From Candidatus Hodarchaeota archaeon (GTDB lineage: Archaea > Asgardarchaeota > Lokiarchaeia > Sigyniarchaeales > SOKP01), in assembly GCA_048887225.1 (NCBI GenBank), contig JBHLJY010000003.1:160001-224000 (forward strand): a stretch of DNA of 64,000 bases, read 5' to 3'. The notes under the pieces are model-generated. The model was not told the origin of the DNA. It worked only from the letters and a program-made list of their open reading frames with translations, and searched no databases. Position 1 is the stretch's first letter; each line of letters opens with the position of its first letter. Positions 6,522-19,405 of this stretch are shown here, piece by piece. Both the position numbers and the translations under genes were made by a program.

Positions 6522-7142
6522 TTAAGCAGCACTTTCCATTGATGTACCGGAAAGTTTCTTATAATGGTTTAATACTGCTTGTCGTGCTGCGTATACGAAG
6601 GCTCTCTTCACGTTTATTCCAGTAATTGCTATTGTTTCGTAGATGAGACAGTGTGTGAGCTTAGCTGTATCTAAAACAGTTCTAATCTTAGCTATCTCCA
6701 CTAGGTCTTCTAAATCACGTTTATTAGCTAATAAAACTAATGGTACTTCAGGAGTAGGGTCATCTGGACTTGGAGGGATTAATTTATTTCCATAAAATTT
6801 TAACAATTCTTTCAAACTCCATATATTTTCCTCCCATTGGTCTATTAAAGAATCCCATGTAAAGATTACTGCATCAGTCCCTTTTAAAACAGTCTGTCTT
6901 TGGAATTTATGTCTACGCTGACCAGCGACAGTATAAACTTGAAAAACCACATTTGAAACTCTTGCTACGACACGATCAAAGAATAGAGTACGGCCTGTAG
7001 GATCTTGTATTTGTTGCATATCTCCTGATGCTAAACCTTCTCGATTGTAGACCCATTCTAGGGCTGTAGTTTTACCTCCAAGGCTTGGCCCATAAAAACA
7101 AATTTTGAAAACAAGTGTTCCATCCCCACGACGTGATGGCAT
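6522..7142 (-). CDS. MglA-type small GTPase
   Basis: KICFYGPSLGGKTT (G1), GRTLFFD (MglA Arg/Thr switch I), YTVAGQ (MglA-type G3), NKRD (G4). Confidence 0.9.
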   Translation of the reverse strand: MPSRRGDGTLVFKICFYGPSLGGKTTALEWVYNREGLASGDMQQIQDPTGRTLFFDRVVARVSNVVFQVYTVAGQRRHKFQRQTVLKGTDAVIFTWDSLIDQWEENIWSLKELLKFYGNKLIPPSPDDPTPEVPLVLLANKRDLEDLVEIAKIRTVLDTAKLTHCLIYETIAITGINVKRAFVYAARQAVLNHYKKLSGTSMESAA

Positions 7143-7259
7143 TTAAATGAGAACCTCAAATTTATTTTTCGAAAAATATTTTTTCTCTAATATTAAATCA
7201 AAAAAACTCATGAAATTTAAAAATTTGCTAAAACAAAAAAAAATAAAGAAAGAATTTTT

Positions 7260-9464
7260 TTAATAGTTAAAGACAATTTGATCTACGATATTATTTAGCG
7301 CATTTAATTTTTGAGTAATAATTATTTTTACTTTTTCTGTATTTATATCGGGATTTTTCATAAAAAGATCTTTTACAATAGATTCGCACTTAATTGCTTT
7401 TCTAGCTAATATTTTATGAGATTTGTTTGTTTTATCATATAGAGGTATTGGAAATGAGAATGGTCTTTTATGAATGTGTCTAGAACTCTTTATAAGTTTG
7501 ATATTTTTAGATAAAATTGGTGTGTTAAGAATGGCACATAAGTAATAAGCCTCTTCTTTAGAATCAGTCGAAAAATAATAATTTTCGGAGCTAACAACAA
7601 TTTTATTTTTTACGTTTTTAATTACTGCTGCTTTTAGATTAGATCCACTAGCATTATAAACGATTATATAATTTTTATTATCAATCTGTTTGGATAATTT
7701 ATTCCAATAATTTAAATTAGAGAATAACGTCTCAATGTTGCTTGTTTTTTTCTTTTTTGCTTGATATATATTGTTCATTTCGTTATAAAAGTTCATTGCG
7801 TATGTATATTGGTTAAGATATTCAAAATTAAATTTAAATTGATTATTAACGGGTAAGAAAACGTTTCGCTTACGTTTTAAAAGAAAAGGAATTAAATCTT
7901 TATTTAAAAACGTTTTATATTGAAAGCTTACTTCAATTTTTTTGTTTTGAAAATAATATTTCCAATTCTTTTTTGCTCTTGAATATATATCAGGATCGGT
8001 TGAGATTTCTAAATAATTATCGTCTTTTTTCTCTATTCGAAAAAACACAAGAGTTCTTGGAACTAACGTTGCTCCTTGGAAGAATTTGTTTTTATATCGA
8101 CTAACTGAGATTTTATTTATAATTTTTAATTGAGGTTCTGGAAGTATTAGCTTTACACCTTTTTTTTCGATTTTTAGACTCGAATAGTACGTTTGTTCAT
8201 AAAGCTCTAAATCATCGTTAAACACCTTAGCTTTAATCGGATATTTGTCTTTTATAGAAATCTTACTATCCTTACCAATATACTCCGCTTTCAAACAGAT
8301 ATGATTTATATTGAAAAAATAATTAGTAGGAAAATCCCAAATTTCTATATTATTAAATAACGAAAATGATCGAAATTTATAACAATGATCCCCGTTTAAG
8401 ACGCTTTTAGTAATTACAAAGAATATTTTACCTCCAATTTTTAAGAATTTTGTTGATGTATAAAAGAATAAAGTAGCTATTTCTATATGTGTGATGTATT
8501 GGCTAAGTGGTTTGATTCCAAATTCTTCTGCTAAATCACGAATTTTAATTTGATAATCTTTATCACTAATATCTTTATAAGTTAACCAAGGTGGATTTCC
8601 TATTATCAGATCAAAAGAATTATATAAATTTTTTAAGTTTATAAACATCAAATTTTCGTAATGCTGAGGAAATAGCGAATCTATTACATAAACATTAATA
8701 TTTGGGAGGATATCTTTCTGTGTGTCAAAATATTCTAAAAAAATTAAAAGAATATTGACTTTTGCTGTCATAGTTGCTAAAGGATTAATATCAAACCCGA
8801 ATACATTATTAATTGCTTTTTGTTTTAATTTATTTGGATTCTCAGAATTAAGGATTTTAACAATTATCTTAATTAAAAAATTTCCCGAACCGCAAGCTGG
8901 ATCTAAAACTTTTAAACCAACATTATAAGAATCGTCTACCATTTTACGAACGAGGTTAGAAGGAGTGTAGAACTCTCCTATTTTATGTCTAGTTATGGTG
9001 AAAAATATTTGCTGGTAGATATCAAGAAATAAATCTTCATAAGCCAAACTGGTAGATTCAATTATATTATATATTTTTTCAAATAGTTTCTTGTTGAAAT
9101 TTGTCCAATTATAGAAATAACCGAATTCAAACAGGTTGAATGCTTCTAGATTATTATTCTTACAATCATCGTAGCATTCTTCAAAATCGATATTTTGAAT
9201 AAAAGAGAGTTTTATTATTATCAAGGATTTCAATAACAAGGCAAAATATGTATGTTTCAAGAAAAGATCTGAGCTTAAAGATTCAGATTCACCAAAAATA
9301 TTCTTGAAAGTCTTATTCCATTGTTGAAATTTTACTTCAAATTCTTTTTTCTTGGATAAGGTTTTTTTTTCAAAATATTTCATTGATTCGTAGAAAAATT
9401 TTGAACTTAGACCAAAAAATTTAGCAATATCTTCACTACCTATAAGCTTTTTAGTACTAACCAT
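7260..9464 (-). CDS. N6-adenine DNA methyltransferase (gamma class, type IIG-like) with C-terminal target-recognition region; no evident nuclease domain
   Basis: GEFYTP, LDPACGSG (motif I), GFDINP, IGNPPW (motif IV). Confidence 0.85.
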   Translation of the reverse strand: MVSTKKLIGSEDIAKFFGLSSKFFYESMKYFEKKTLSKKKEFEVKFQQWNKTFKNIFGESESLSSDLFLKHTYFALLLKSLIIIKLSFIQNIDFEECYDDCKNNNLEAFNLFEFGYFYNWTNFNKKLFEKIYNIIESTSLAYEDLFLDIYQQIFFTITRHKIGEFYTPSNLVRKMVDDSYNVGLKVLDPACGSGNFLIKIIVKILNSENPNKLKQKAINNVFGFDINPLATMTAKVNILLIFLEYFDTQKDILPNINVYVIDSLFPQHYENLMFINLKNLYNSFDLIIGNPPWLTYKDISDKDYQIKIRDLAEEFGIKPLSQYITHIEIATLFFYTSTKFLKIGGKIFFVITKSVLNGDHCYKFRSFSLFNNIEIWDFPTNYFFNINHICLKAEYIGKDSKISIKDKYPIKAKVFNDDLELYEQTYYSSLKIEKKGVKLILPEPQLKIINKISVSRYKNKFFQGATLVPRTLVFFRIEKKDDNYLEISTDPDIYSRAKKNWKYYFQNKKIEVSFQYKTFLNKDLIPFLLKRKRNVFLPVNNQFKFNFEYLNQYTYAMNFYNEMNNIYQAKKKKTSNIETLFSNLNYWNKLSKQIDNKNYIIVYNASGSNLKAAVIKNVKNKIVVSSENYYFSTDSKEEAYYLCAILNTPILSKNIKLIKSSRHIHKRPFSFPIPLYDKTNKSHKILARKAIKCESIVKDLFMKNPDINTEKVKIIITQKLNALNNIVDQIVFNY

Positions 9465-9760: not shown

Positions 9761-10303
9761 CTATCGCATGAATGAGGGAAGCATTAGGTTAAAGATTTCA
9801 GCAATTATTTTTATACTTGCTACTTCTTTAATGGTAGTTATTATTAATACACTTCTCGAAAGCTCGTCTCGATCTAGAGTGCCACCAGAATATATTGCTA
9901 AATCATTATTAAACATCAATAAGTATTTCACATATGGATTGTTTATTACGTTAATTCCTTCAATGCTTTTTAACTCATCATAAATTCTTCGCTCTTTTTT
10001 CTCATATACATTTCGATCGCGTGTTATTAATAAAATTGGAATCCCTCTTTGAGCTGCCCTTTTTAATTCTATACTATAAAAATCATCTATTTTTGGGGTC
10101 ACAATATTTAGTTGGTCTTGTGTAGTTTGGATGAACTCTATTAATTTCTCGTTAAGTAATTCCTTGTTGTCACCTTCACCTGAAGACTCTATAACTATAT
10201 TACCTACTAATGCTAACACTCTTTTTTCGAATTCTTCTATTTGTTGTTTTAATCTTCGATTTTCTAGCCGTAATTCATTTATTCGATCAGTCAAGTCAGA
10301 CAA
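9761..10303 (-). CDS. N-terminal coiled coil plus degenerate PLD-like domain (no HKD motif)
   Basis: Heptad N-terminus; LNIVTPKID...LKRAAQRGIPILLITR resembles the PLD fold; HxKxxxxD is replaced by YVKYLLMFNND. Confidence 0.55.
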   Translation of the reverse strand: MSDLTDRINELRLENRRLKQQIEEFEKRVLALVGNIVIESSGEGDNKELLNEKLIEFIQTTQDQLNIVTPKIDDFYSIELKRAAQRGIPILLITRDRNVYEKKERRIYDELKSIEGINVINNPYVKYLLMFNNDLAIYSGGTLDRDELSRSVLIITTIKEVASIKIIAEIFNLMLPSFMR

Positions 10304-10410
10304 AACACATCAACTTCTACATTCTTTTTTGTTATTTTGCTTCTTATTATTTCTTTTATTTGTTAATCTATTTATAATTTTATTATTTTTACTTTTTAGA
10401 AAAACTTAAA

Positions 10411-12912
10411 TTATAGTTTGTTCCACGGCTTACCGAAATGTAAAAATGAACTAATTGCGATACCACTTTTACATTGTTGCCTAGCTCTAAGAAGTGAAGT
10501 TCCTTGGCTTTCATTATTAAATAAACTAAGGTAAAAATTCGCTATAATACTTTGAGTATCTTCATTAAAAAATGGATATGTCCTAGTTATTATACCTATA
10601 ATACGATTATAGTCAAATTGCCTAATGATCTCACCAAAAATTTCTAAGACATTATTTAGTTTTTCTCCTTCAACGTTAAAAACCTGCGCATTAAAAAACA
10701 AAAATGGATGCGAATTAGATTTATTTTTATCTATAGCCTTCTTTATTTCATTAAAGGTTATTAGAGTGTTATCATTCGTAAGAATATAACTATCTTTGGG
10801 ACTCATTCTGGAATAAAAAATATTTCCAACAAAATGAATAATATGAAAAGCCCCTTCTGAAATATTTGATAATATTTTTTCGCGAGTGGAATGTATTCCA
10901 GATAGAATAGTAAATTGATTAACATTTTCCGTTGTATTAAAAAAATCTGTAATGTGATTTAATTCATCGTGAGCATCAGGGAACGGAAAGATTAAAGTTT
11001 TATTTTTGTACTCCTCATTCCATTTTAAAGGCCCTTTTGCATTTGTAGCTTCAATTAATAAAACATTAAATAAGGTCTTAGTTGGGATTGTAATGGATTC
11101 CTCTTGAGCTAATTGTCCAAATTGAATACCAGCAAGAGGAGGTTCGCCGATTTTATAGCCACTTGAATATTTTAACATGAAAAATTTATCGTCATCATAC
11201 AAGAAACCAAAAGGTATTGTCATTTTATCTAAAATAAAATAAATATGAGGTATAAAATCTAACTTTTTAACTTTTAATTGCTTGAAAAAATCTCTCAATA
11301 AGTTTGGTAAGAATATATATAACAGCTTTCCAAATTCTATTATATTAAATTGATATCTCTTTTCTTTTCTTCCTGAAAAAATGTCATTAAAAATTTCCAT
11401 TATTTGATGATCGTTCCATAATTCATCAGTTATTTTTCCCTCAACTATTGCATAATCCTTAGATATCATACGAAAAGAAATCAGACCTTCTGAATTAATC
11501 CGTATTATTGCTTGATTCAAAATAAAATCAGGATTAATCGATGTTAAATCTTCTTCAAACGAATATATTTGATTTTTAATTGATTCACACTTATTGTATA
11601 AAGAATTTAAGTCAGTTAATTTTTCTCTAATATTTTCATCTAAATATGGGATTATTTTTTGTGCGAGATTAAAATCTTTTTCTTCGTATAAAGCGCGATA
11701 GAACATCATTCTCCAAAAATCAGCGGTTTCTAACGTGAAAAATTTGCTTTTAAATTGCCAGAGATAATTACAAGTATAGAAATAATGATAAATTTGAACC
11801 GGAGTTTGAGGTGTTTTTAAATGATTGCTTAATTTTTCCATAGATAAAAGCAAATATTTTCTTTCTTTAATATCAACAAACTTTTTACAAGCTTCAACCC
11901 ATAACTCAATTAAAGAAACGTCGTACCCTAAATCTGTTTTATCCATAAAAATATCTTCCAAAAAATCATATATTTCATAAGCAATTAAAAACCGATTTCT
12001 ATTTATAGAAAAATCAACAAATTTACGGATATAACTTAGGGCAACTTCAATAGTTTGAAATTCTTTTAATTTAGTAAAAGCATATCTTATTATTATAATA
12101 ATCCATGTAAATTCTCCAATGTTATTTAAATAATAAATTAATTCCTCCAAATCAGATAGAATTACACTAAAATTCTGCTCATTTACTGAAATTTCTCTCA
12201 TATTGGAGAAATCTTCTTTTAAATAATTTGGTAAGCGTTTTGCTATAATTTTATTAATAATTTGAACGAAATCTAGAGATTCCTTTGGTGAACCTTCAAT
12301 GAGGTGATATTTTATATTAACATTTTCCATAAAAACAAATAGTAATAACGCTTTTGTGCTCGGTTCCAGGTTATAAAGAATTTCTCCTAAAATTTTTAAG
12401 CTAAAACGGAATAAATCTGATGAAAATATTCTTTTTCTTAAATATGCTAATAAGAATTGTAATTCGATAAGTTTGAGATAATCTCCCCTTTCTTTAACCT
12501 TAAGTGAGAATGAATTTATAAATTTAGTTATTCCTTCAATAGATAATTCATCTACTTTTATGAAACTTTTTAAAAGAATCATCCAAAAATTATTAAATAA
12601 ATCAAATTCATCTAAATTGGAAAGAAAGGAAAAAAAACGTTTGTAAGCGTCAATATATCTGATTTTGTCAATTTTATCTTTTTGACTTTTCAAAGAATTT
12701 AAATAAATCCACCATGAATTTGCAATAATCATTATTAATTGACGCTTTTTTTGAGGAGCTAACCATTCTGTTTTTTCAATTTCAAAATATAAATTAGAAA
12801 ATAATCTACTTGCCCATTGATGATTAGCTGAATTAAGTAATTGCCTTCCTTGAAGTATTCCTTTTTGAAAATTCATTAAGAATTGATTTTTAATATCAGG
12901 ACTAATTGTCAT
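10411..12912 (-). CDS. Alpha-helical (TPR-like) protein with C-terminal CHAT (caspase/HetF) domain lacking the catalytic dyad
   Basis: FHIIHFVGN (cf. HFAGHG), FLFFNAQ (cf. LNAC), FYLSL...SLLRARQ, FLHFGKP (cf. FVLYGDP). Confidence 0.75.
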   Translation of the reverse strand: MTISPDIKNQFLMNFQKGILQGRQLLNSANHQWASRLFSNLYFEIEKTEWLAPQKKRQLIMIIANSWWIYLNSLKSQKDKIDKIRYIDAYKRFFSFLSNLDEFDLFNNFWMILLKSFIKVDELSIEGITKFINSFSLKVKERGDYLKLIELQFLLAYLRKRIFSSDLFRFSLKILGEILYNLEPSTKALLLFVFMENVNIKYHLIEGSPKESLDFVQIINKIIAKRLPNYLKEDFSNMREISVNEQNFSVILSDLEELIYYLNNIGEFTWIIIIIRYAFTKLKEFQTIEVALSYIRKFVDFSINRNRFLIAYEIYDFLEDIFMDKTDLGYDVSLIELWVEACKKFVDIKERKYLLLSMEKLSNHLKTPQTPVQIYHYFYTCNYLWQFKSKFFTLETADFWRMMFYRALYEEKDFNLAQKIIPYLDENIREKLTDLNSLYNKCESIKNQIYSFEEDLTSINPDFILNQAIIRINSEGLISFRMISKDYAIVEGKITDELWNDHQIMEIFNDIFSGRKEKRYQFNIIEFGKLLYIFLPNLLRDFFKQLKVKKLDFIPHIYFILDKMTIPFGFLYDDDKFFMLKYSSGYKIGEPPLAGIQFGQLAQEESITIPTKTLFNVLLIEATNAKGPLKWNEEYKNKTLIFPFPDAHDELNHITDFFNTTENVNQFTILSGIHSTREKILSNISEGAFHIIHFVGNIFYSRMSPKDSYILTNDNTLITFNEIKKAIDKNKSNSHPFLFFNAQVFNVEGEKLNNVLEIFGEIIRQFDYNRIIGIITRTYPFFNEDTQSIIANFYLSLFNNESQGTSLLRARQQCKSGIAISSFLHFGKPWNKL

Positions 12913-12938
12913 TAAGATTAATTACCCATTTTTTATGA

Positions 12939-14087
12939 TTACCCTTTATATTCTGGATTTGGTTTCCACCCTTCTTGTAACTGTTTTTTTGAGTATAATA
13001 TTGATGCCCCAATCCACGACATATTTTCACGACCAGAAACTGCAAACACATTAATTTTATCTCTTATTTTTTCGGAAAAATACTTAGTTAATTCAAGCTT
13101 CAATCTCTCCTTTAATCCAGGAATTAAACTACCTCCCCCCGCAAGAATAATATTAGGAAGTAATTCTTCCCAATTCTCTCGATCCCAGGATTTGATAACT
13201 TTAACTATTGCTTCATCTAATCCAAAATAATCTATATGAATTAATCCTGGATTAAATAAAGGTTCAGATAACATGAATCGCTCCTCGTTTATTTTTAAGC
13301 TGGATCCATCGGGAAAATTAACTTTTTGGTCGTAATTAGTAAGTCCATCTCTTATGCTATTGCTTTCACCTTCAGCATCTAATACACATAGTGAATATTT
13401 ATCTTTAATTTCTTTTGCAAGCCATTTATCAAGATAAAAATTCTCTTCTGACCCCTTTCTAGTTAATATCATATTAAGGAAATAATTTGTCAAATCCTTC
13501 CCTGCTATAGGAAAGATATCTCGTGCCATAATATTTGTGAATCCGTGAAAAATCGTGGAAAAATAAGTATTGGATTCTCCCATATTAACTACAACTCCGG
13601 TGGTTTTCTTTAAAGTTTGTAAAATAGCTTGACTTTCAGATAAAAATAATAAATAAGGGAAGTTTAAGTCTCGAAAAAAAATTTGTTCCAACTTAGTTTT
13701 TTCCAATTCTGTCATAAAAAAAGGAGAAATCACAATTATTGATTGTTTATTTTGATATTCAGATTGGATATTTAATTGTTGATAATAATAATGAAAAAAT
13801 TTTGAAAAAATATTGTAATTATTCTCTTTTTTAAACTCATGAATATTTAATATATTTTGGTATTTTAAGGCATTAAGGCCATATAAGTGCCTTTCAGTAT
13901 TTTCTTCAATAAAAAGTTCAGCAAGTCCATCAACTACATCTGATTCAAATATATAATCTGTAGCATCCACATGAACGCTAGGTACAATAATTTCTGGTGA
14001 ATCATCACCAGCCCAGCCTAAACGAAAAGTACTACTTCCGATGTCTAAAATCAAAGGTCTTAATTGCTTATTATCAGCAGATAACAT
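12939..14087 (-). CDS. Divergent Asgard actin-related protein
   Basis: LILDIGSSTFRLGWAGDDSP, TTGVVVNMG, IAGKDLT, EIKDK, FPDG...EERF..SEPLFNP, NIILAGGGSLIPGLKERL, SWIGASIL. Confidence 0.93.
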   Translation of the reverse strand: MLSADNKQLRPLILDIGSSTFRLGWAGDDSPEIIVPSVHVDATDYIFESDVVDGLAELFIEENTERHLYGLNALKYQNILNIHEFKKENNYNIFSKFFHYYYQQLNIQSEYQNKQSIIVISPFFMTELEKTKLEQIFFRDLNFPYLLFLSESQAILQTLKKTTGVVVNMGESNTYFSTIFHGFTNIMARDIFPIAGKDLTNYFLNMILTRKGSEENFYLDKWLAKEIKDKYSLCVLDAEGESNSIRDGLTNYDQKVNFPDGSSLKINEERFMLSEPLFNPGLIHIDYFGLDEAIVKVIKSWDRENWEELLPNIILAGGGSLIPGLKERLKLELTKYFSEKIRDKINVFAVSGRENMSWIGASILYSKKQLQEGWKPNPEYKG

Positions 14088-14119
14088 ATTAAATGAGATA
14101 TTTGATTAAAATTAATAAT

Positions 14120-14902
14120 TTATAACGAAAAAAGCTCTTTTTCATGAATATATTCGTCTGTCAATCTTTTTAATTGATATTCTTTAACTTGTAATTCAAG
14201 CATCCCTAAAACCTTTTTAAATTCAAGGGACATGGTTTCAATATTTACGCCAGAAACCTTTTCGATTTCATCCCTTTTCGTCTTAAATTGACTTAAATTC
14301 AATTTTATTTTATCGAATAGATTGTTTATTGAAGAAATTAAATCCTCGGTGTTTTTCTTGGTGAATTTTCGCATTTTCCTTAATATAGCTAATATATTGC
14401 TAATACTATTTTCCCATTGATTATATCTTTCGTTATAACCTTTCATAAAATCCTCTAAAAATACTTGTAAATTCTTATAAATATTATATTTAGGTGGTGT
14501 AGTCTCAATAGGTTTTTGAATGGGGGCACTACTTTTAGTTGTTTTTCTTTCAGATATAGGGATATCTTCTATAAGATAATCTTCAACAATTTCGCTTTTT
14601 CTCTCATAAGATAACTGTGGTTCAATTTTTTCTTCTGCTTTTTCTTCACGATGATACCAAGTTTCTTCAGATACTCCTGTTAATAATCCCTGTAAATCTA
14701 TTTGAGCCTCCTTGGCAGAGCTTAAAGCAGAACTCAATGCCGAGTCTAATGATAATTCCGTTTCTGGTATTTCTGCAGCTTTTAAAGTAGCACCCGAAGA
14801 AATTTCTAGTCCTTTTTTCTTGGTCGTTTTTAGAGCATCTTCCAATGAGGTGTCTGTTTTTTTCTTTTTAGACGATTTTTTTTTCTTTTTATTCTTAGCC
14901 AT
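14120..14902 (-). CDS. Hypothetical protein: Lys-rich N-terminus, disordered middle, helical/coiled-coil C-terminus
   Basis: 260-aa ORF ending 32 nt upstream of the actin-related gene. Confidence 0.75.
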   Translation of the reverse strand: MAKNKKKKKSSKKKKTDTSLEDALKTTKKKGLEISSGATLKAAEIPETELSLDSALSSALSSAKEAQIDLQGLLTGVSEETWYHREEKAEEKIEPQLSYERKSEIVEDYLIEDIPISERKTTKSSAPIQKPIETTPPKYNIYKNLQVFLEDFMKGYNERYNQWENSISNILAILRKMRKFTKKNTEDLISSINNLFDKIKLNLSQFKTKRDEIEKVSGVNIETMSLEFKKVLGMLELQVKEYQLKRLTDEYIHEKELFSL

Positions 14903-15025: not shown

Positions 15026-15427
15026 TTACTCTAAGGGGATTATCTCTACTTCAAGAGCATCTCCTTCGATTTTTAAAATTTCTTTGAGCTTCTCAAGGTC
15101 CATCTCTTTTGGTCTCGGTCCAATCACAGTCCACATAGCGGTTTTCTCTTTTTCAATAGTTAACGATTCTCCATAAACTAGCGAAATCCCGTGATTTCCA
15201 AAAGTCGTAGCTATTTTTGCCAATGATCCAGCTTCATCCTTCATTAATATTCTAAATTTAAGAGAATCACCTTTAATTCCAACTGGGGTTATTCTGATTT
15301 CTTTTGTATCTGAATCTGCGATCATCATTAACTGTGAGTTCTCAGTCAGTCCTAGACTTTTTCTAATCGTCATTGGAATTACTATTCTTCCTCTATTATC
15401 TATAACCAAAAACTTGACATCCTTCAT
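15026..15427 (-). CDS. AbrB/MazE/SpoVT DNA-binding domain fused to an ACT domain (regulator)
   Basis: IDNRGRIVIPMTIRKSLGL; MKDEAGSLAKIATTFGNHGISL (ACT signature). Confidence 0.85.
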   Translation of the reverse strand: MKDVKFLVIDNRGRIVIPMTIRKSLGLTENSQLMMIADSDTKEIRITPVGIKGDSLKFRILMKDEAGSLAKIATTFGNHGISLVYGESLTIEKEKTAMWTVIGPRPKEMDLEKLKEILKIEGDALEVEIIPLE

Positions 15428-15593: not shown

Positions 15594-17768
15594 TTATGTT
15601 TTATGGGCCTTCAACTTCACTGTAAGGTCTCTTGCTCGCTTTGAATACCAGACCAATAAATCTCCAGCGTTTTCGGGCTTAAAATATTCGCCACCGCATA
15701 AAGTTGCAGCACGAGTCATTAATGCGTCATTAGGATTCCCCAACCCAACTATATAAATGACTACATTTAAATTCTCAGAGAATCTCTTTGCTGCTTCAAA
15801 AAACGCATTACCATCAGTAGGTTCACCATCAGTTAACAAAACAATCATGGTTGGCTGATCTGGGGATATTTTTTCAAATTCGTTTAGAATTAATTGAGCT
15901 TGTTCCATAGCATGTCCCATATTGGTGGCCTGTCCATATGAAGAGGCGATTCTATCAACGATCATCTTCGCAGCCTCCTCTAGAATTCCTTTTTTACCAC
16001 TAGCGGAATCCATATAAAATCCACCTCCAAAGGGTAGTACTTGGGCCTCATCAGCAAATCGGATAACAGCAACTTTTTCTCCAAAACCACGACCAACTTT
16101 TTCACTTAGGAATAGAACTGCTGCAAATGCAGCCGAAATTCTTCTTGGGATGTTGATGCCATCCTTGAATTTTTTTAAGAATTCTTGAATTTCACGAGAT
16201 TCCATTGCTGCCTTAATACCCTCAATTGCTGGCGCAATATTAGTTACAAGCACATCACGTGCCATCATGGATCGACTTATGTCAATTATCAAAATAGCAT
16301 TAAAAGGTATCAAACCCAATGGTGATAGGGTTAATGTTGTATTTTTCGTAATTTGAGCTAATATATCACCGGTTAAGTCTGGAACGCAATCAATAATAGA
16401 ACAAGCAATATTAACTGCGTTCCATCTTAATTTAATTCCCTTGAAAATGATATAATTTGAAAGCCAATCCTTTAAAGCTTCTACACTCTGTCTAGCATTG
16501 CTTATAATTTCCCACATATTCTCGCCAGAAATGGGTGAAACCCCTAAAGAAACGCTTTGTAAAGGAATGATTTGTCGTTGATTTTTTGAAATTTTTACTT
16601 CAAAGCTACCAATTCCAGACGCTTCTAAAATTTCACTATCAATAATAATTATATTATCAGGAACTGTTTCTACAACAACAACCTTACCCGCTCCAATTGC
16701 TCCCGTAAGTTCATCTTCGAATGCTAAAACATCATTATTTTGAATTGAAATTGTATGTTGCGTTCTTGGACTTACTTGACAAAAACCATTTAAATTTGGC
16801 TGCGATTGGACTTCTAATATTATTTCAGACGCTTTTTGAATTGGTGGCTCTGTAGAATATATTACGATTTGTTCAGCTTGAATATTCGTATCTTCTAATG
16901 TGTCTTTGCTCATTCTTATCTCAGTATCGCTAATTTGCGCTTGATCTATTCTCGCAGAACCCATAGATCTCGTTAGAGGGTCTTCCCATGCGATCAACAT
17001 ACCTTGTCCAAGGCCTAATTGTTGCAAAACGTTAAGACTTAGTTGTACTCGACCTCCTTCTATGTTATTATCTATAACAGGAGTTTGAATTATCCCTTTT
17101 TTCTGATTTTTTAACATATTTATATCAATCCTATTAGGATAAGGTTCTACTGGAGCTACTGGAGCGATGGTTTCTTGCGTCGGCATTGGTTGAAGTGTTG
17201 ATGGTGGTGGTGGCATTGAAGAAGGAGGGGCCCTTATTTGAGGAGGAGGTTTAAACTGTGGTGTTGGAGTAAATTGTGTGGGTGGGGGTATTTGTTTAGG
17301 TGGTGGTGGGTGTGCGGGCAGAGGTGCTTGTATAGGTTGTGTTGGTTTTATAGGTGGAGGTGTTGGTGCGAGCTGAGATGATGGAGGTGGTTGAGGTACA
17401 GGTGTAAATTGAGGTGCAACACTTGGTTCTGGTGGTTGAAGAGACGGTTGAGAAGTTAAAGCGGATTTTGATGGTACTGTAGGTTCGGCTTCTTGTGAAA
17501 TAGGTGGAGCTGCGGTGCTTGGTCTTATAATAACTTCAATACCTGTAAATTCTATTTCATCAATGATGTTTTTTGAAATCATCCCAGCAAAATCTAATGC
17601 AGAATTAGAAATTTCAGCAAGAGCAATAGTACTTCTGCCATTCTCTGGATTAATAATTTCTACAGACGATCTTGTTGAAATACCAAGTTTTTTAGCATTG
17701 GACGGACTAATAATTGCTTTATTTTTGGTTTCGTCTTTAATATCTACAAAAATCTTTATTTCTGGCAT
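15594..17768 (-). CDS. Cdc48-N-like double-psi-barrel repeats, Pro-rich linker and C-terminal vWA domain
   Basis: Three repeats like AIISPSNAKKLGI..VEI; MIDAS DISRS, ATNM, LLTDGEP; IYIVGLG; GGEYF. Confidence 0.75.
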   Translation of the reverse strand: MPEIKIFVDIKDETKNKAIISPSNAKKLGISTRSSVEIINPENGRSTIALAEISNSALDFAGMISKNIIDEIEFTGIEVIIRPSTAAPPISQEAEPTVPSKSALTSQPSLQPPEPSVAPQFTPVPQPPPSSQLAPTPPPIKPTQPIQAPLPAHPPPPKQIPPPTQFTPTPQFKPPPQIRAPPSSMPPPPSTLQPMPTQETIAPVAPVEPYPNRIDINMLKNQKKGIIQTPVIDNNIEGGRVQLSLNVLQQLGLGQGMLIAWEDPLTRSMGSARIDQAQISDTEIRMSKDTLEDTNIQAEQIVIYSTEPPIQKASEIILEVQSQPNLNGFCQVSPRTQHTISIQNNDVLAFEDELTGAIGAGKVVVVETVPDNIIIIDSEILEASGIGSFEVKISKNQRQIIPLQSVSLGVSPISGENMWEIISNARQSVEALKDWLSNYIIFKGIKLRWNAVNIACSIIDCVPDLTGDILAQITKNTTLTLSPLGLIPFNAILIIDISRSMMARDVLVTNIAPAIEGIKAAMESREIQEFLKKFKDGINIPRRISAAFAAVLFLSEKVGRGFGEKVAVIRFADEAQVLPFGGGFYMDSASGKKGILEEAAKMIVDRIASSYGQATNMGHAMEQAQLILNEFEKISPDQPTMIVLLTDGEPTDGNAFFEAAKRFSENLNVVIYIVGLGNPNDALMTRAATLCGGEYFKPENAGDLLVWYSKRARDLTVKLKAHKT
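17140..17520 (-). repeat. Low-complexity Pro/Gln/Thr-rich coding segment
   Basis: Repeated ggtggt/ggagg tracts on the + strand encoding PPPP, PQF.P.P, PPPQI. Confidence 0.85.
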
Positions 17769-17991
17769 ATTTTTTCAAATTGTATTCTTTTTTAAGGAAT
17801 TATTTAATTACATTAATTTTTTAAGAAATGACAGTAATTAAATTTTGAGATTGTTTTCGTAGATTGAATATATTTTACTTATTCTTCAAATATTTTTAAT
17901 GGTATTTAAAAGTTCAAATGGTTTTTATTTTTTTATAAGCACTTAAAAAAGCTTTTCTAAATGCGAGGAATAAATGATTACTATGATTAGA

Positions 17992-18381
17992 TTAAAGAGC
18001 GGGGTATCTTTTACCTATTTCTCCTGCATAATACCTAAAGACAGTGACAACTTTTCCTAAATCTGCTATCTTTCTTGAAGCGCCCATAAGGAAGAACCGA
18101 CCAGCAGCGCTAAGTATGATAAATGCGTCCTCACCTCTTAATACTACTTCCAACATATTATGATATCCCATTGTATCAACAGCGTCAGAACCACTCTTCA
18201 TAACAACTGCACTTAAACTTGAGAATAAATCAGGTTCAATTTCATAGCTTGGAATACAGCTAAAGGCCAATTGTAAACCTTCTCTAGTCACTAACGCGAG
18301 CGCTTCAAGCTCAGTGTGTTCAGTAATATTCCCTAAAAAATTCGATAAGCTTTTAGCCTCGTCTGGAGTTAAACTAACCAT
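17992..18381 (-). CDS. Roadblock/LC7 (MglB-like) protein
   Basis: LEALALVTREGL, LFSSLSA, EVVLRGEDAFIILSAAG pattern; 129 aa. Confidence 0.85.
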   Translation of the reverse strand: MVSLTPDEAKSLSNFLGNITEHTELEALALVTREGLQLAFSCIPSYEIEPDLFSSLSAVVMKSGSDAVDTMGYHNMLEVVLRGEDAFIILSAAGRFFLMGASRKIADLGKVVTVFRYYAGEIGKRYPAL

Positions 18382-18535
18382 TTTAACTTTTTTTCTAAAT
18401 TTATGTTCTATTTTAAATAATATTATTATGAGTTTTGAACTTAAAAATGTATAGTTCTTAAGGTAGGATATAAATTACAAATTAGAAAAGGATTATTACT
18501 CCACAAATTGAATAAAATAAATAGAGTCTAATTAA

Positions 18536-19405
18536 TTATTTAAACTCTCCAAGCTGCGTTTTAATTTGATCTTTAAGGATTTGCTTTTTATCTTTATATT
18601 CAGTGGCTCCTTTCACTTTTTTTGATGATTCACTTTTTAGAAACTCAATGGCGACAATCTTTCCATGCTCGGAAAGAACTCGTGGAGAATACCCTTCAGC
18701 AAAAAAAATACCCTCAGGGATTGATCCTACTTCTTCAATCTTTTTCTCAGTCTGTTTTTTACCTAAGAAGGTTGTAACTTTTTCGACAACCGAATATGCG
18801 TGATTACCAATTATTATTAATTCTCTTTCATAGCCGTCAGGAATTTTTATTTCTTCTAATTTCTGCATAATTTGATCAAAATCTATTGGCTTTTCCTCTT
18901 GAACATAGCTTTCCATTGATTCTTTACCTGTATATAACGGTCCTATATTAGAAGTCGAAGATTGAATTGTCTTGCTACCCGCTATATTCATACCTTCGGC
19001 AGGGGTAGGTGCTTCAAATGTAGCTTTTTCCCTTAAAGGATGCCCTCCACCTCCACCTGCCGCTTTAGCTGCTTTTTCTTCTTTAATCTCTTTTGCTATA
19101 CCTGCTTCTGTTTTCCCTCCAATGACTTTTAGAAACTCATCCGTTTCTTCTGCTTCGTCAAGGGGCACGACAGCATAATGCATTCCAACTTGTCCTCTAA
19201 TTTCTTGACTCCTTTTTGCACCTATAAATTTTGAACGGACGGATGATTGTATCCCCTTCCACAGAAAAACTTTTCGAAGATCATCCGCTACTATGACGTA
19301 ACACTCATCGGTTTTTAGAAGGTCTTTAACAGCCCCATCTGAGGTTAGTTCTGTGGTTGTACCGTCTGGATTGATTAAAAAAACCTGTAGGCCCAATTTC
19401 CTCAA
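18536..19405 (-). CDS. Single gelsolin-domain protein with C-terminal extra domain (1DGelX-like architecture)
   Basis: LLKTDECYVI...KVFLWKG..SS..KFIGA...DEAEETDEFL matches the gelsolin repeat. Confidence 0.85.
   Translation of the reverse strand: MRKLGLQVFLINPDGTTTELTSDGAVKDLLKTDECYVIVADDLRKVFLWKGIQSSVRSKFIGAKRSQEIRGQVGMHYAVVPLDEAEETDEFLKVIGGKTEAGIAKEIKEEKAAKAAGGGGGHPLREKATFEAPTPAEGMNIAGSKTIQSSTSNIGPLYTGKESMESYVQEEKPIDFDQIMQKLEEIKIPDGYERELIIIGNHAYSVVEKVTTFLGKKQTEKKIEEVGSIPEGIFFAEGYSPRVLSEHGKIVAIEFLKSESSKKVKGATEYKDKKQILKDQIKTQLGEFK

Follow-up and report, generated by a model that had tools for sequence, protein, structure and literature searches.

Four open reading frames occupy positions 9761 to 14902 of the window (the whole 64,000-nucleotide stretch of DNA that was analyzed), all in a single orientation on the minus strand and separated by intergenic gaps of 32, 26, and 107 nt; their coordinates agree with the layout given in a first-pass annotation. 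In order of reading they are gene 1 (14120 to 14902; 260 amino acids; UYP47648.1 in L. ossiferum and QEE15651.1 in P. syntrophicum MK-D1), gene 2, which encodes an actin-related protein (ARP) (12939 to 14087; 382 amino acids; UYP47647.1 and QEE15652.1), gene 3, which encodes a pseudo-CHAT protein (10411 to 12912; 833 amino acids; UYP47646.1 in L. ossiferum), and gene 4, which encodes a PLD-like protein (9761 to 10303; 180 amino acids from a TTG start; UYP47645.1 and QEE15654.1). Co-orientation, short gaps, and an order preserved despite changed flanks are the marks of an operon. The four-gene extent proposed for it needs qualification: the order held, but the conserved run additionally takes in an AbrB/MazE-ACT regulator gene (15026 to 15427, minus strand) that lies 123 nt upstream of gene 1 and precedes it at every same-family locus that extends far enough to show it, as well as in one sister-family genus and at L088. 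The AbrB-ACT gene is possibly part of the four-gene unit or its regulator.

Gene 2 matches the Pfam Actin family (PF00022; E value of 3.4e-48), and its monomer model (pLDDT of 89) aligns with F-actin over 350 residues (Z of 41.1, rmsd of 2.1). In a tree made without eukaryotic ARP sequences, it falls in a clade of 14 rows with long branches (support of 100/99), separate from Lokiactin, of which the same genome has its own copy (C5:137632). The ARP belongs to its own fast-evolving clade outside the Lokiactin clade, as the description "non-Lokiactin" had implied; in a published tree, UYP47647.1 groups with ARPs of eukaryotes and with other ARPs of Asgard archaea. UYP47647.1, the orthologue of the ARP, is one of three non-Lokiactin homologues of L. 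ossiferum (PMC9834061), an assignment on which that paper's primer and an accession look-up agree. In the passages of PMC9834061 drawn on here, Lokiactin is expressed severalfold above these homologues, and no function, partner, or gene context is given for them; below, a candidate partner is proposed together with its interface.

Comparison with Lokiactin bears out the altered nucleotide-site residues: Q137 is replaced by E151, and further changes are D154N, D157E, G158S, H161Y, G15S, and K18R. The residues at the hydrolysis and sensor sites (E151, N168, S172, and Y175) vary across 42 orthologues, the H73 sensor loop is deleted, and the C-terminal helix is absent; G13, G156, G182, K213, and G301 are kept. 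A reading in which Q137 was retained proved to be misregistered: the Gln of a neighboring SQA does not align with this position, which is E151. The cleft that would receive the D-loop of Lokiactin is altered (Y143 to S/Q/T, L349 to K/Q, M355 to G, and I287 to R), W-loop residues G168 and F169 are kept, and two barbed-side residues, W301 and R303, are invariant in the clade. A lengthened, clade-conserved segment replaces the D-loop itself (residues 42 to 60; 13908 to 13964, minus strand), with a pLDDT of ~49 in the monomer model. Judged from these residues, the ARP looks non-polymerizing.

Gene 3 matches Pfam CHAT above the cutoff (E value of 2.5e-6), and fold searches likewise return a caspase-like fold; a sequence search of the PDB gave no match. 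A helical solenoid (residues 1 to 448), a pseudo-protease domain (~464 to 590), and a caspase-fold domain (613 to 833) make up the protein, an architecture in common with separase, Csx29 (Craspase), and DdvA. The helical part of Csx29 binds a regulator. In VIA comparisons, the Z and rmsd values were 16.2 and 3.8 over 282 aligned residues for separase 5fc2, where the likeness is one of architecture, 17.4 and 2.9 over 183 for SAVED-CHAT 8tl0, and 18.6 and 12.2 over 372 for Csx29 7y9x. The catalytic dyad is dead (10684 to 10824, minus strand), its His replaced by Asn697 and its Cys by Gln743. The loss that the first-pass annotation had read from this copy extends across homologues: Asn697 is found in 104/104 and 42/42 sequences of two sets, and neither set contains a Cys at position 743. 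DdvA, in contrast, keeps its His-Cys dyad, and a relative from another order has His and Cys (HYAGH and LNSC) aligned at positions 697 and 743. Compared with TPR or helical-repeat CHAT proteases, the protein differs by a clade-specific hairpin insert (residues 624 to 638) and by a predicted partner with an actin fold.

The outer genes encode smaller proteins. Lysine makes up 14 of the first 31 residues of gene 1, consistent with its description as Lys-rich and coiled-coil, but that part is variable and only a C-terminal helical domain of ~120 amino acids (about 14129 to 14491, minus strand) is conserved among homologues. The variable N-terminal half, which carries the short conserved motifs DLQxLL and PxL, is probably disordered. 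No Pfam family scored above the cutoff for gene 1, and searches of PDB, Pfam, and ESM Atlas gave no informative match; a WH2-like motif was discarded because the stretch is present only in this copy. Gene 4 consists of a coiled coil of ~30 amino acids and a single putative PLD-fold domain with conserved motifs NDR, NNPNV, and LPSFMR. PLDc_2 falls below the cutoff for this copy (E value of 7e-4) and is matched by 72 of 92 homologues; UniRef names UYP47645.1 a TrmB C-terminal domain protein. Gene 4 aligns with HxK proteins, and its closest non-orthologous matches carry H-x-K/R. At the PLD HxK(x4)D site it reads N-P-x-V-K/R-Y-L-L-V-F-N with no conserved His, so that the catalytic motif is indeed missing. 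With its putative single PLD-type domain, gene 4 resembles Nuc-type HKD nucleases and the non-catalytic TrmB/FilR1 domains; it differs from PLD-fold proteins in having no HKD, no HTH, and an N-terminal coiled coil. Since non-catalytic PLD folds are already known, gene 4 is a less surprising part of the arrangement.

Conservation of the gene neighborhood, named at the outset as a check on the arrangement, was found in 43 of 52 same-family genomes, which carry the complete order, and in both cultured species, L. ossiferum (NEF87_003933-930) and P. syntrophicum MK-D1 (DSAG12_01478-81), in each with different flanking genes; three further sister-family genomes carry the intact run with other flanks. 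Wherever the positions of the two can be determined, the ARP and CHAT genes are adjacent and co-oriented. The CHAT gene directly follows the actin gene at 73/73 metagenome loci with room, more than expected by chance; the median ARP-CHAT gap is 24 nt. Gene 1 precedes the ARP gene at 72/72 loci (L177 corrected), and gene 4 follows the CHAT gene at 46/47. The four-gene module was not found outside one lokiarchaeal order, which includes both cultured species. Among 301 genomes searched, no full-length CHAT orthologue, and among 120 genomes of the class, no ARP orthologue, occurred beyond two families of that order, and a spread across Asgard classes was therefore rejected.

Departures from the order divide the run. 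Five sister-family genomes, including a closed one, have genes 1 and 4 side by side but neither the ARP nor the pseudo-CHAT gene; in one same-family genome a 3.3-kb deletion removed the actin gene and most of the pseudo-CHAT gene. Joint absence is weak evidence of a link between the two, because adjacent genes vanish in one deletion. The CHAT gene is interrupted and the ARP gene intact at G225, G138, L136, and L193, with the reverse at L177; these interruptions may reflect recent decay or assembly errors. The gene run behaves as two modules, the ARP and pseudo-CHAT genes on the one hand and genes 1 and 4 on the other.

Prediction of the complex of the ARP with pseudo-CHAT residues 1 to 625 gave an ipSAE of 0.67, compared to 0.01 for the best of 3 controls, so that the proposed interface check was passed by this pair. 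The value is twice the pass mark. Of solved pairs 58/80 attained that mark, and of mismatched pairs 2/110, although these counts hold only roughly with our own alignments; according to the tool's note, 7/44 blind neighbors passed the same test. The runs share at least 94% of contacts, with a partner pLDDT of at least 85, and we know of no solved actin-CHAT complex that the predictor could recall. In the model, N-terminal helices of pseudo-CHAT (residues 21 to 138; 12499 to 12852, minus strand; conserved L25, N30, H31, W33, D88, F94, and S134) clamp the remodeled D-loop on the pointed face of the ARP. Loop 42 to 60, the predicted core of the interface, is placed with ~1 Å expected error, in contrast to its low confidence in the ARP alone. 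A second part comprises ARP residues 75 to 80 (13848 to 13865, minus strand), beside the deleted H73 loop, with L80 invariant. The predicted interface spans the pointed face only and leaves the barbed face, including W301 and R303, free. On the CHAT side, conservation is higher at the interface than elsewhere in the solenoid (0.65 versus 0.57; P = 0.004, uncorrected for burial); on the ARP side, conservation was not significantly raised (P = 0.14). Covariation across 140 non-redundant ARP-CHAT pairs (Meff of 47) was not enriched at the predicted interface, and the top pairs were variable columns; an intraprotein control likewise failed, which indicates that this test was without power. ARP-CHAT fusion or stop read-through was rejected (no fusion among 139 loci, with the frames evenly split, 52/45/42). 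The predictions support binding of the ARP to pseudo-CHAT.

The explanation that we consider best, and somewhat probable as a whole, is that the ARP and pseudo-CHAT form a dedicated non-filament heterodimer. The N-terminal helices of pseudo-CHAT would fold the remodeled D-loop and cover the pointed face of the ARP (subdomains 2 and 4), so that no further actin could be added there. The ARP, with its retained glycines and K213, may serve as a structural and possibly nucleotide-binding scaffold subunit, and the dead protease end of the scaffold may bind putative clients without cutting them. Such a scaffold could derive from a once active Lokiarchaeia helical-repeat CHAT protease whose dyad disappeared and that became coupled to a duplicated actin. 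Genes 1 and 4 would form a separable, probably co-transcribed pair, a helical adaptor and a PLD-fold binding domain, whose products may dock on the scaffold and would not need it.

The first-pass annotation had placed all four products in one structural or scaffolding complex around the ARP; the ARP-CHAT interface is the part of that proposal favored by prediction. A single obligate four-protein complex is unlikely, even though the order survives the change of both flanks between two families, genes 1 and 4 so regularly adjoin the pair, and W301 and R303 are free for another partner. Against it, G129 and the five sister-family genomes have intact, conserved copies of genes 1 and 4 without the ARP and CHAT genes. 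No gene 4 turned up in G065, a genome 100% complete, or behind the CHAT gene at L176; in G252 gene 4 is located elsewhere, and relatives of it stand alone on Helarchaeales-labeled contigs. This persistence suggests that at least genes 1 and 4 have an ARP-independent role.

Less probable still is a role for the pair as a cap or template at the pointed end of Lokiactin filaments, comparable to that of Arp11 with p62 in dynactin, whose filament terminates in an Arp11 subunit wrapped by p62 (PMC8047447). An interface confined to the pointed face and the retained W-loop residues are compatible with capping; the altered D-loop cleft and the missing C-terminal helix argue against it, as does the main text on Lokiactin co-immunoprecipitation, which lists profilin, gelsolins, an ARF GTPase, and BAR proteins and no ARP (PMC13716822). 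An end cap would be rare, which qualifies that absence. Comparably doubtful is a broader version, in which Lokiactin filaments would be capped or anchored by a multi-subunit complex: the dead separase-like scaffold, gripping the pointed face of the ARP, together with the products of genes 1 and 4. Such a complex would be an archaeal counterpart, evolved independently, of the dynactin Arp11 end complex. That the genes merely share a transcription unit as conserved neighbors, their products being physically unlinked, is improbable: gene order around the locus is broadly conserved in the family, including AbrB-ACT and a DNA methyltransferase, and blind neighbors do sometimes pass the prediction test, but the ipSAE far exceeds near-zero controls, the interface lies on a clade-specific loop, and the block stays while its flanks change. 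DNase I binds actin on the D-loop side. Pseudo-CHAT might by analogy act as an inhibitor or chaperone that sequesters a polymer-competent ARP as a monomer until a signal frees it, and TPR-CHAT proteins are allosteric switches (PMC11506125), but the loss of filament contacts at either face of the ARP, and of its hydrolysis residues, makes this very improbable.

The heterodimer reading names a candidate partner and a residue-level predicted interface for one non-Lokiactin Asgard ARP that is present in both cultured species, for which proteome and co-immunoprecipitation data already exist (PXD074767 and PXD068820). In the crenarchaeal arcade cluster (crenactin and arcadins 1 to 4; PMC5173319), an archaeal actin gene is likewise clustered with genes of binding partners; here the partner is predicted. 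Crenactin polymerizes and arcadin-2 binds its hydrophobic groove (PMC5173319), whereas this ARP looks non-polymerizing and its predicted binding is on the D-loop side. Pfam family searches of the four genes gave no arcadin likeness. The suggested analogy to eukaryotic ARP complexes stands, as dynactin Arp11-p62 and the Arp4/Arp8 modules of INO80, SWR1, and BAF also combine a divergent ARP, eroded filament contacts, and a dedicated partner (predicted in our case), but homology of the partners was not found: Pfam, PDB, and fold searches, the last without gene 1, listed no ARPC, p62/p25/p27, or HSA subunit. Being confined to one lokiarchaeal order and dispensable in some lineages, the ARP-CHAT system is most likely a parallel invention and not an ancestor of the eukaryotic complexes. 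If binding is confirmed, archaea, like eukaryotes, also made a duplicated actin into a non-filament subunit of a hetero-complex, and an actin fold would be linked to a separase-like protein.

Literature searches found no published description of the module, PADLOC gave no match that would make the four genes a defense system, and a promoter and terminator scan of the locus with a bacterial model gave nothing above chance. In MK-D1, RPKM values of the four genes (195, 175, 170, and 250) resemble those of neighbors (140 to 254) and so show expression only. RNA-library (Logan) contigs from one study bridge genes 1 to 3 at the L. ossiferum locus, although contigs cannot show one transcript. NCBI records labeled Thor-, Hod-, Hermod-, or Odinarchaeota share 52 to 95% identity with the protein here, and one of them is a same-genus genome in GTDB, so these labels look wrong.

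Four co-oriented ORFs on the minus strand of the window, at 14120-14902 (gene 1), 12939-14087 (gene 2), 10411-12912 (gene 3; 833 amino acids [aa]), and 9761-10303 (gene 4), are separated by 32, 26, and 107 nucleotides, exactly as the first-pass annotation had recorded. Pfam identified gene 2 as an actin (E = 3.4e-48; the actin-related protein, or ARP) and gene 3 as a CHAT protein (E = 2.5e-6). The match of gene 4, a coiled-coil protein, to PLD-like domains was weak (E = 7e-4), and gene 1, with its Lys-rich N-terminal half and helical domain, had no Pfam family. The genome is 98% complete and encodes four actins; genes 1, 3, and 4 are each single copy. Upstream of the block and co-oriented with it (15594-19405) are gelsolin-like, Roadblock, and Cdc48N-like/Pro-rich/vWA genes; in about half of same-family loci these genes accompany the block, and in the others they lie apart from it. 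Downstream (6522-9464) lie a DNA methyltransferase gene (Eco57I/type IIG-like) and then a small Arf/MglA-like GTPase gene; the former adjoins gene 4 in most same-family loci, a stability unusual for such a gene.

Synteny across Asgard genomes had been proposed as a check on this arrangement, and the order proved to be kept in two families of one order, the Sigyniarchaeales, between differing flanks. Among 54 sampled genomes of the window's own family, each gene was matched in 49 to 51, and all four stood in order within 6 kb in 43 of the 52 with any tallied match. Most incomplete cases look like contig breaks; the exceptions (G138, G129, G177, and G065) were treated singly. In a set of 80 metagenome loci anchored on ARP and counted where there was room, CHAT followed ARP in 73/73, gene 1 preceded ARP in 72/72 (with L177 corrected), and gene 4 followed CHAT in 46/47; these loci are kin and not independent events, and the sister family is the better control. 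There, the block is intact in G251, G256, G257, "Candidatus L. ossiferum" (G253; 6,035,313 bp; NEF87_003933-930), and P. syntrophicum MK-D1 (G258; DSAG12_01478-81), with a Hef-type helicase gene and a PHP gene on its upstream side and an unknown gene on its downstream side; the same-family flanks are an AbrB-ACT regulator and the DNA methyltransferase. A more divergent contig, L088, carries AbrB-ACT and all four genes. No full-length orthologue was found outside this order for CHAT (301 genomes) or ARP (120 genomes of the class). Several metagenome-assembled genomes (L216 and others) bear NCBI labels of other Asgard classes, with a protein 52 to 95% identical to the window's; GTDB places L216 in the window's own genus, and labels of this kind can give a false impression of wide distribution.

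In five sister-family genomes (two genera, one genome closed), gene 1 lies directly beside gene 4, and profile searches found neither ARP nor CHAT elsewhere. In G129, a single 3.3-kb deletion removed ARP and about two-thirds of CHAT. Searches did not recover gene 4 in G065 and placed it at another site in G252; its relatives stand alone in Helarchaeales-labeled contigs. This separate occurrence indicates that ARP and CHAT are a tight pair and that genes 1 and 4 work without them, although joint loss alone is weak evidence because the two genes are adjacent. With the conserved order speaking for it and these separations against it, one obligate complex of all four proteins is unlikely. Only one of ARP and CHAT is interrupted in a few loci, by in-frame stops in G225, L136, L193, and L177 and by an insertion in G138; every broken CHAT copy retains at least 330 N-terminal residues. 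A multigene insert, possibly an integrated element, splits the pseudo-CHAT gene of G138 (L101, 313-3870) near codon 325; the C-terminal half of the gene starts another contig. In G177, where no ARP was found, gene 1 is followed at the contig end by an ORF resembling, by eye, an IS transposase (L086, 2-571). One Helarchaeales-labeled gene 4 relative (L092, 788-8570) lies after a gene for a 2,397-aa FG-GAP beta-propeller protein, with vWA-RING and JAB genes close by.

The ARP has an actin fold (Z, 41.1; rmsd, 2.1 over 350) and, as claimed earlier, is not a Lokiactin: it forms its own clade (support, 100/99), with branches much longer than Lokiactin's. Where it falls among the other paralogues is uncertain, as long branches come together there. 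The L. ossiferum orthologue, UYP47647.1, is one of the three non-Lokiactin homologues in PMC9834061. In its frame (L074, 10703-11791), ATG, GTG, and TTG are all absent ahead of the phosphate-1 loop; GenBank holds a 307-aa form lacking the N terminus, and RefSeq gives 362 aa for both strains, which makes a noncanonical start probable. G13, G156, G168, F169, G182, K213, and G301 are retained, and the reported nucleotide-site alterations were found at G15, Q137, D154, D157, G158, and H161. In place of Q137, the window's ARP has E151 and sister-family ARPs have N, H, or G; the nucleotide site is more eroded in that family. The H73 loop and C-terminal helix are absent, Y143, L349, M355, and I287 are all substituted, and the D-loop is lengthened and conserved inside the clade. 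Given established actin biochemistry, an ARP with these changes should hydrolyze ATP little or not at all and should not form actin-type filaments; it may bind nucleotide. That ARP-CHAT caps the pointed end of Lokiactin, in the manner of Arp11-p62, is quite improbable: its acceptor cleft has changed residues, and the main text of the Lokiactin co-IP paper (PMC13716822) names no ARP. Two genomes from other lokiarchaeal orders (L131, 1477-3810; L132, 70-2652) each encode a divergent actin fused to ~400 to 480 extra residues, which comprise a short helical stretch, possibly winged-helix-like by eye, and a low-complexity tail with repeated FTF/PTF-x-K/R-I-D motifs. G099 and G273, in neither of which the operon ARP was found, carry a second, faster-evolving Lokiactin copy adjoining a UvrA-like gene (L097, 5800-6936; L098, 5779-6984).

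Complex modeling, also proposed as a check, was applied to ARP with CHAT and predicted an interface. With CHAT 1-625, ARP 8-380, and a 42-row alignment for each, ipSAE was 0.67, and the highest of three controls reached 0.01; the pass mark was attained by 58/80 solved and 2/110 mismatched pairs, counts only approximately valid with these alignments. Runs shared at least 94% of contacts, with partner pLDDT of at least 85. In the predicted complex, CHAT 21-37, 83-98, and 117-138 contact ARP 42-60, 75-80, 218, and 258-261, that is, the subdomain 2/4 face and the remodeled D-loop, which is low confidence in the monomer model. On the CHAT side, conservation exceeds that of the remaining solenoid (P = 0.004, uncorrected for burial); on the ARP side, it is not significantly raised (P = 0.14). 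A covariation check was without power. The model supports binding of ARP to pseudo-CHAT, and that the two are mere gene neighbors is highly improbable. We favor, as the probable arrangement, a nonpolymerizing heterodimer of ARP and pseudo-CHAT that would act as a scaffold; the unit would also include genes 1 and 4, a pair separable from the other two.

The pseudo-CHAT model (pLDDT, 87; pTM, 0.81) comprises a helical solenoid, a pseudoprotease domain, and a caspase-fold domain; its best structural matches are Csx29, SAVED-CHAT, and separase. A 1,013-aa helical-repeat CHAT protein from another lokiarchaeal order (L100, 1530-4568), with no actin in the 10 kb of sequence that includes its gene, matches profile positions 170-821 (E = 1.8e-20). 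Its dyad is intact (HYAGH, LNSC), and it is the nearest active-looking relative found. The catalytic residues are missing from both CHAT and PLD domains, as the first-pass annotation had it: Asn697 and Gln743 replace the His-Cys dyad, no pseudo-CHAT orthologue has His or Cys there, and the HKD histidine, present in the nearest nonorthologous matches to gene 4, is absent from gene 4 itself. We infer that pseudo-CHAT descends from an active protease; that it is a sequestering inhibitor is barely credible beside the favored scaffold.

No published description of the four-gene arrangement was found in a search mostly outside subscription journals. The ARP-CHAT system would work like a eukaryotic ARP hetero-complex or the arcade cluster, a likeness that does not establish membership in either. 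New here are the controlled interface prediction, the intact-dyad CHAT relative, the deletion map, and corrections of the Q137 register and of the range, which is confined to one order. RNA-library contigs, which cannot prove a single transcript, span genes 1 to 3 of the L. ossiferum locus. In MK-D1, all four genes are transcribed at 170 to 250 RPKM, similar to neighboring genes.
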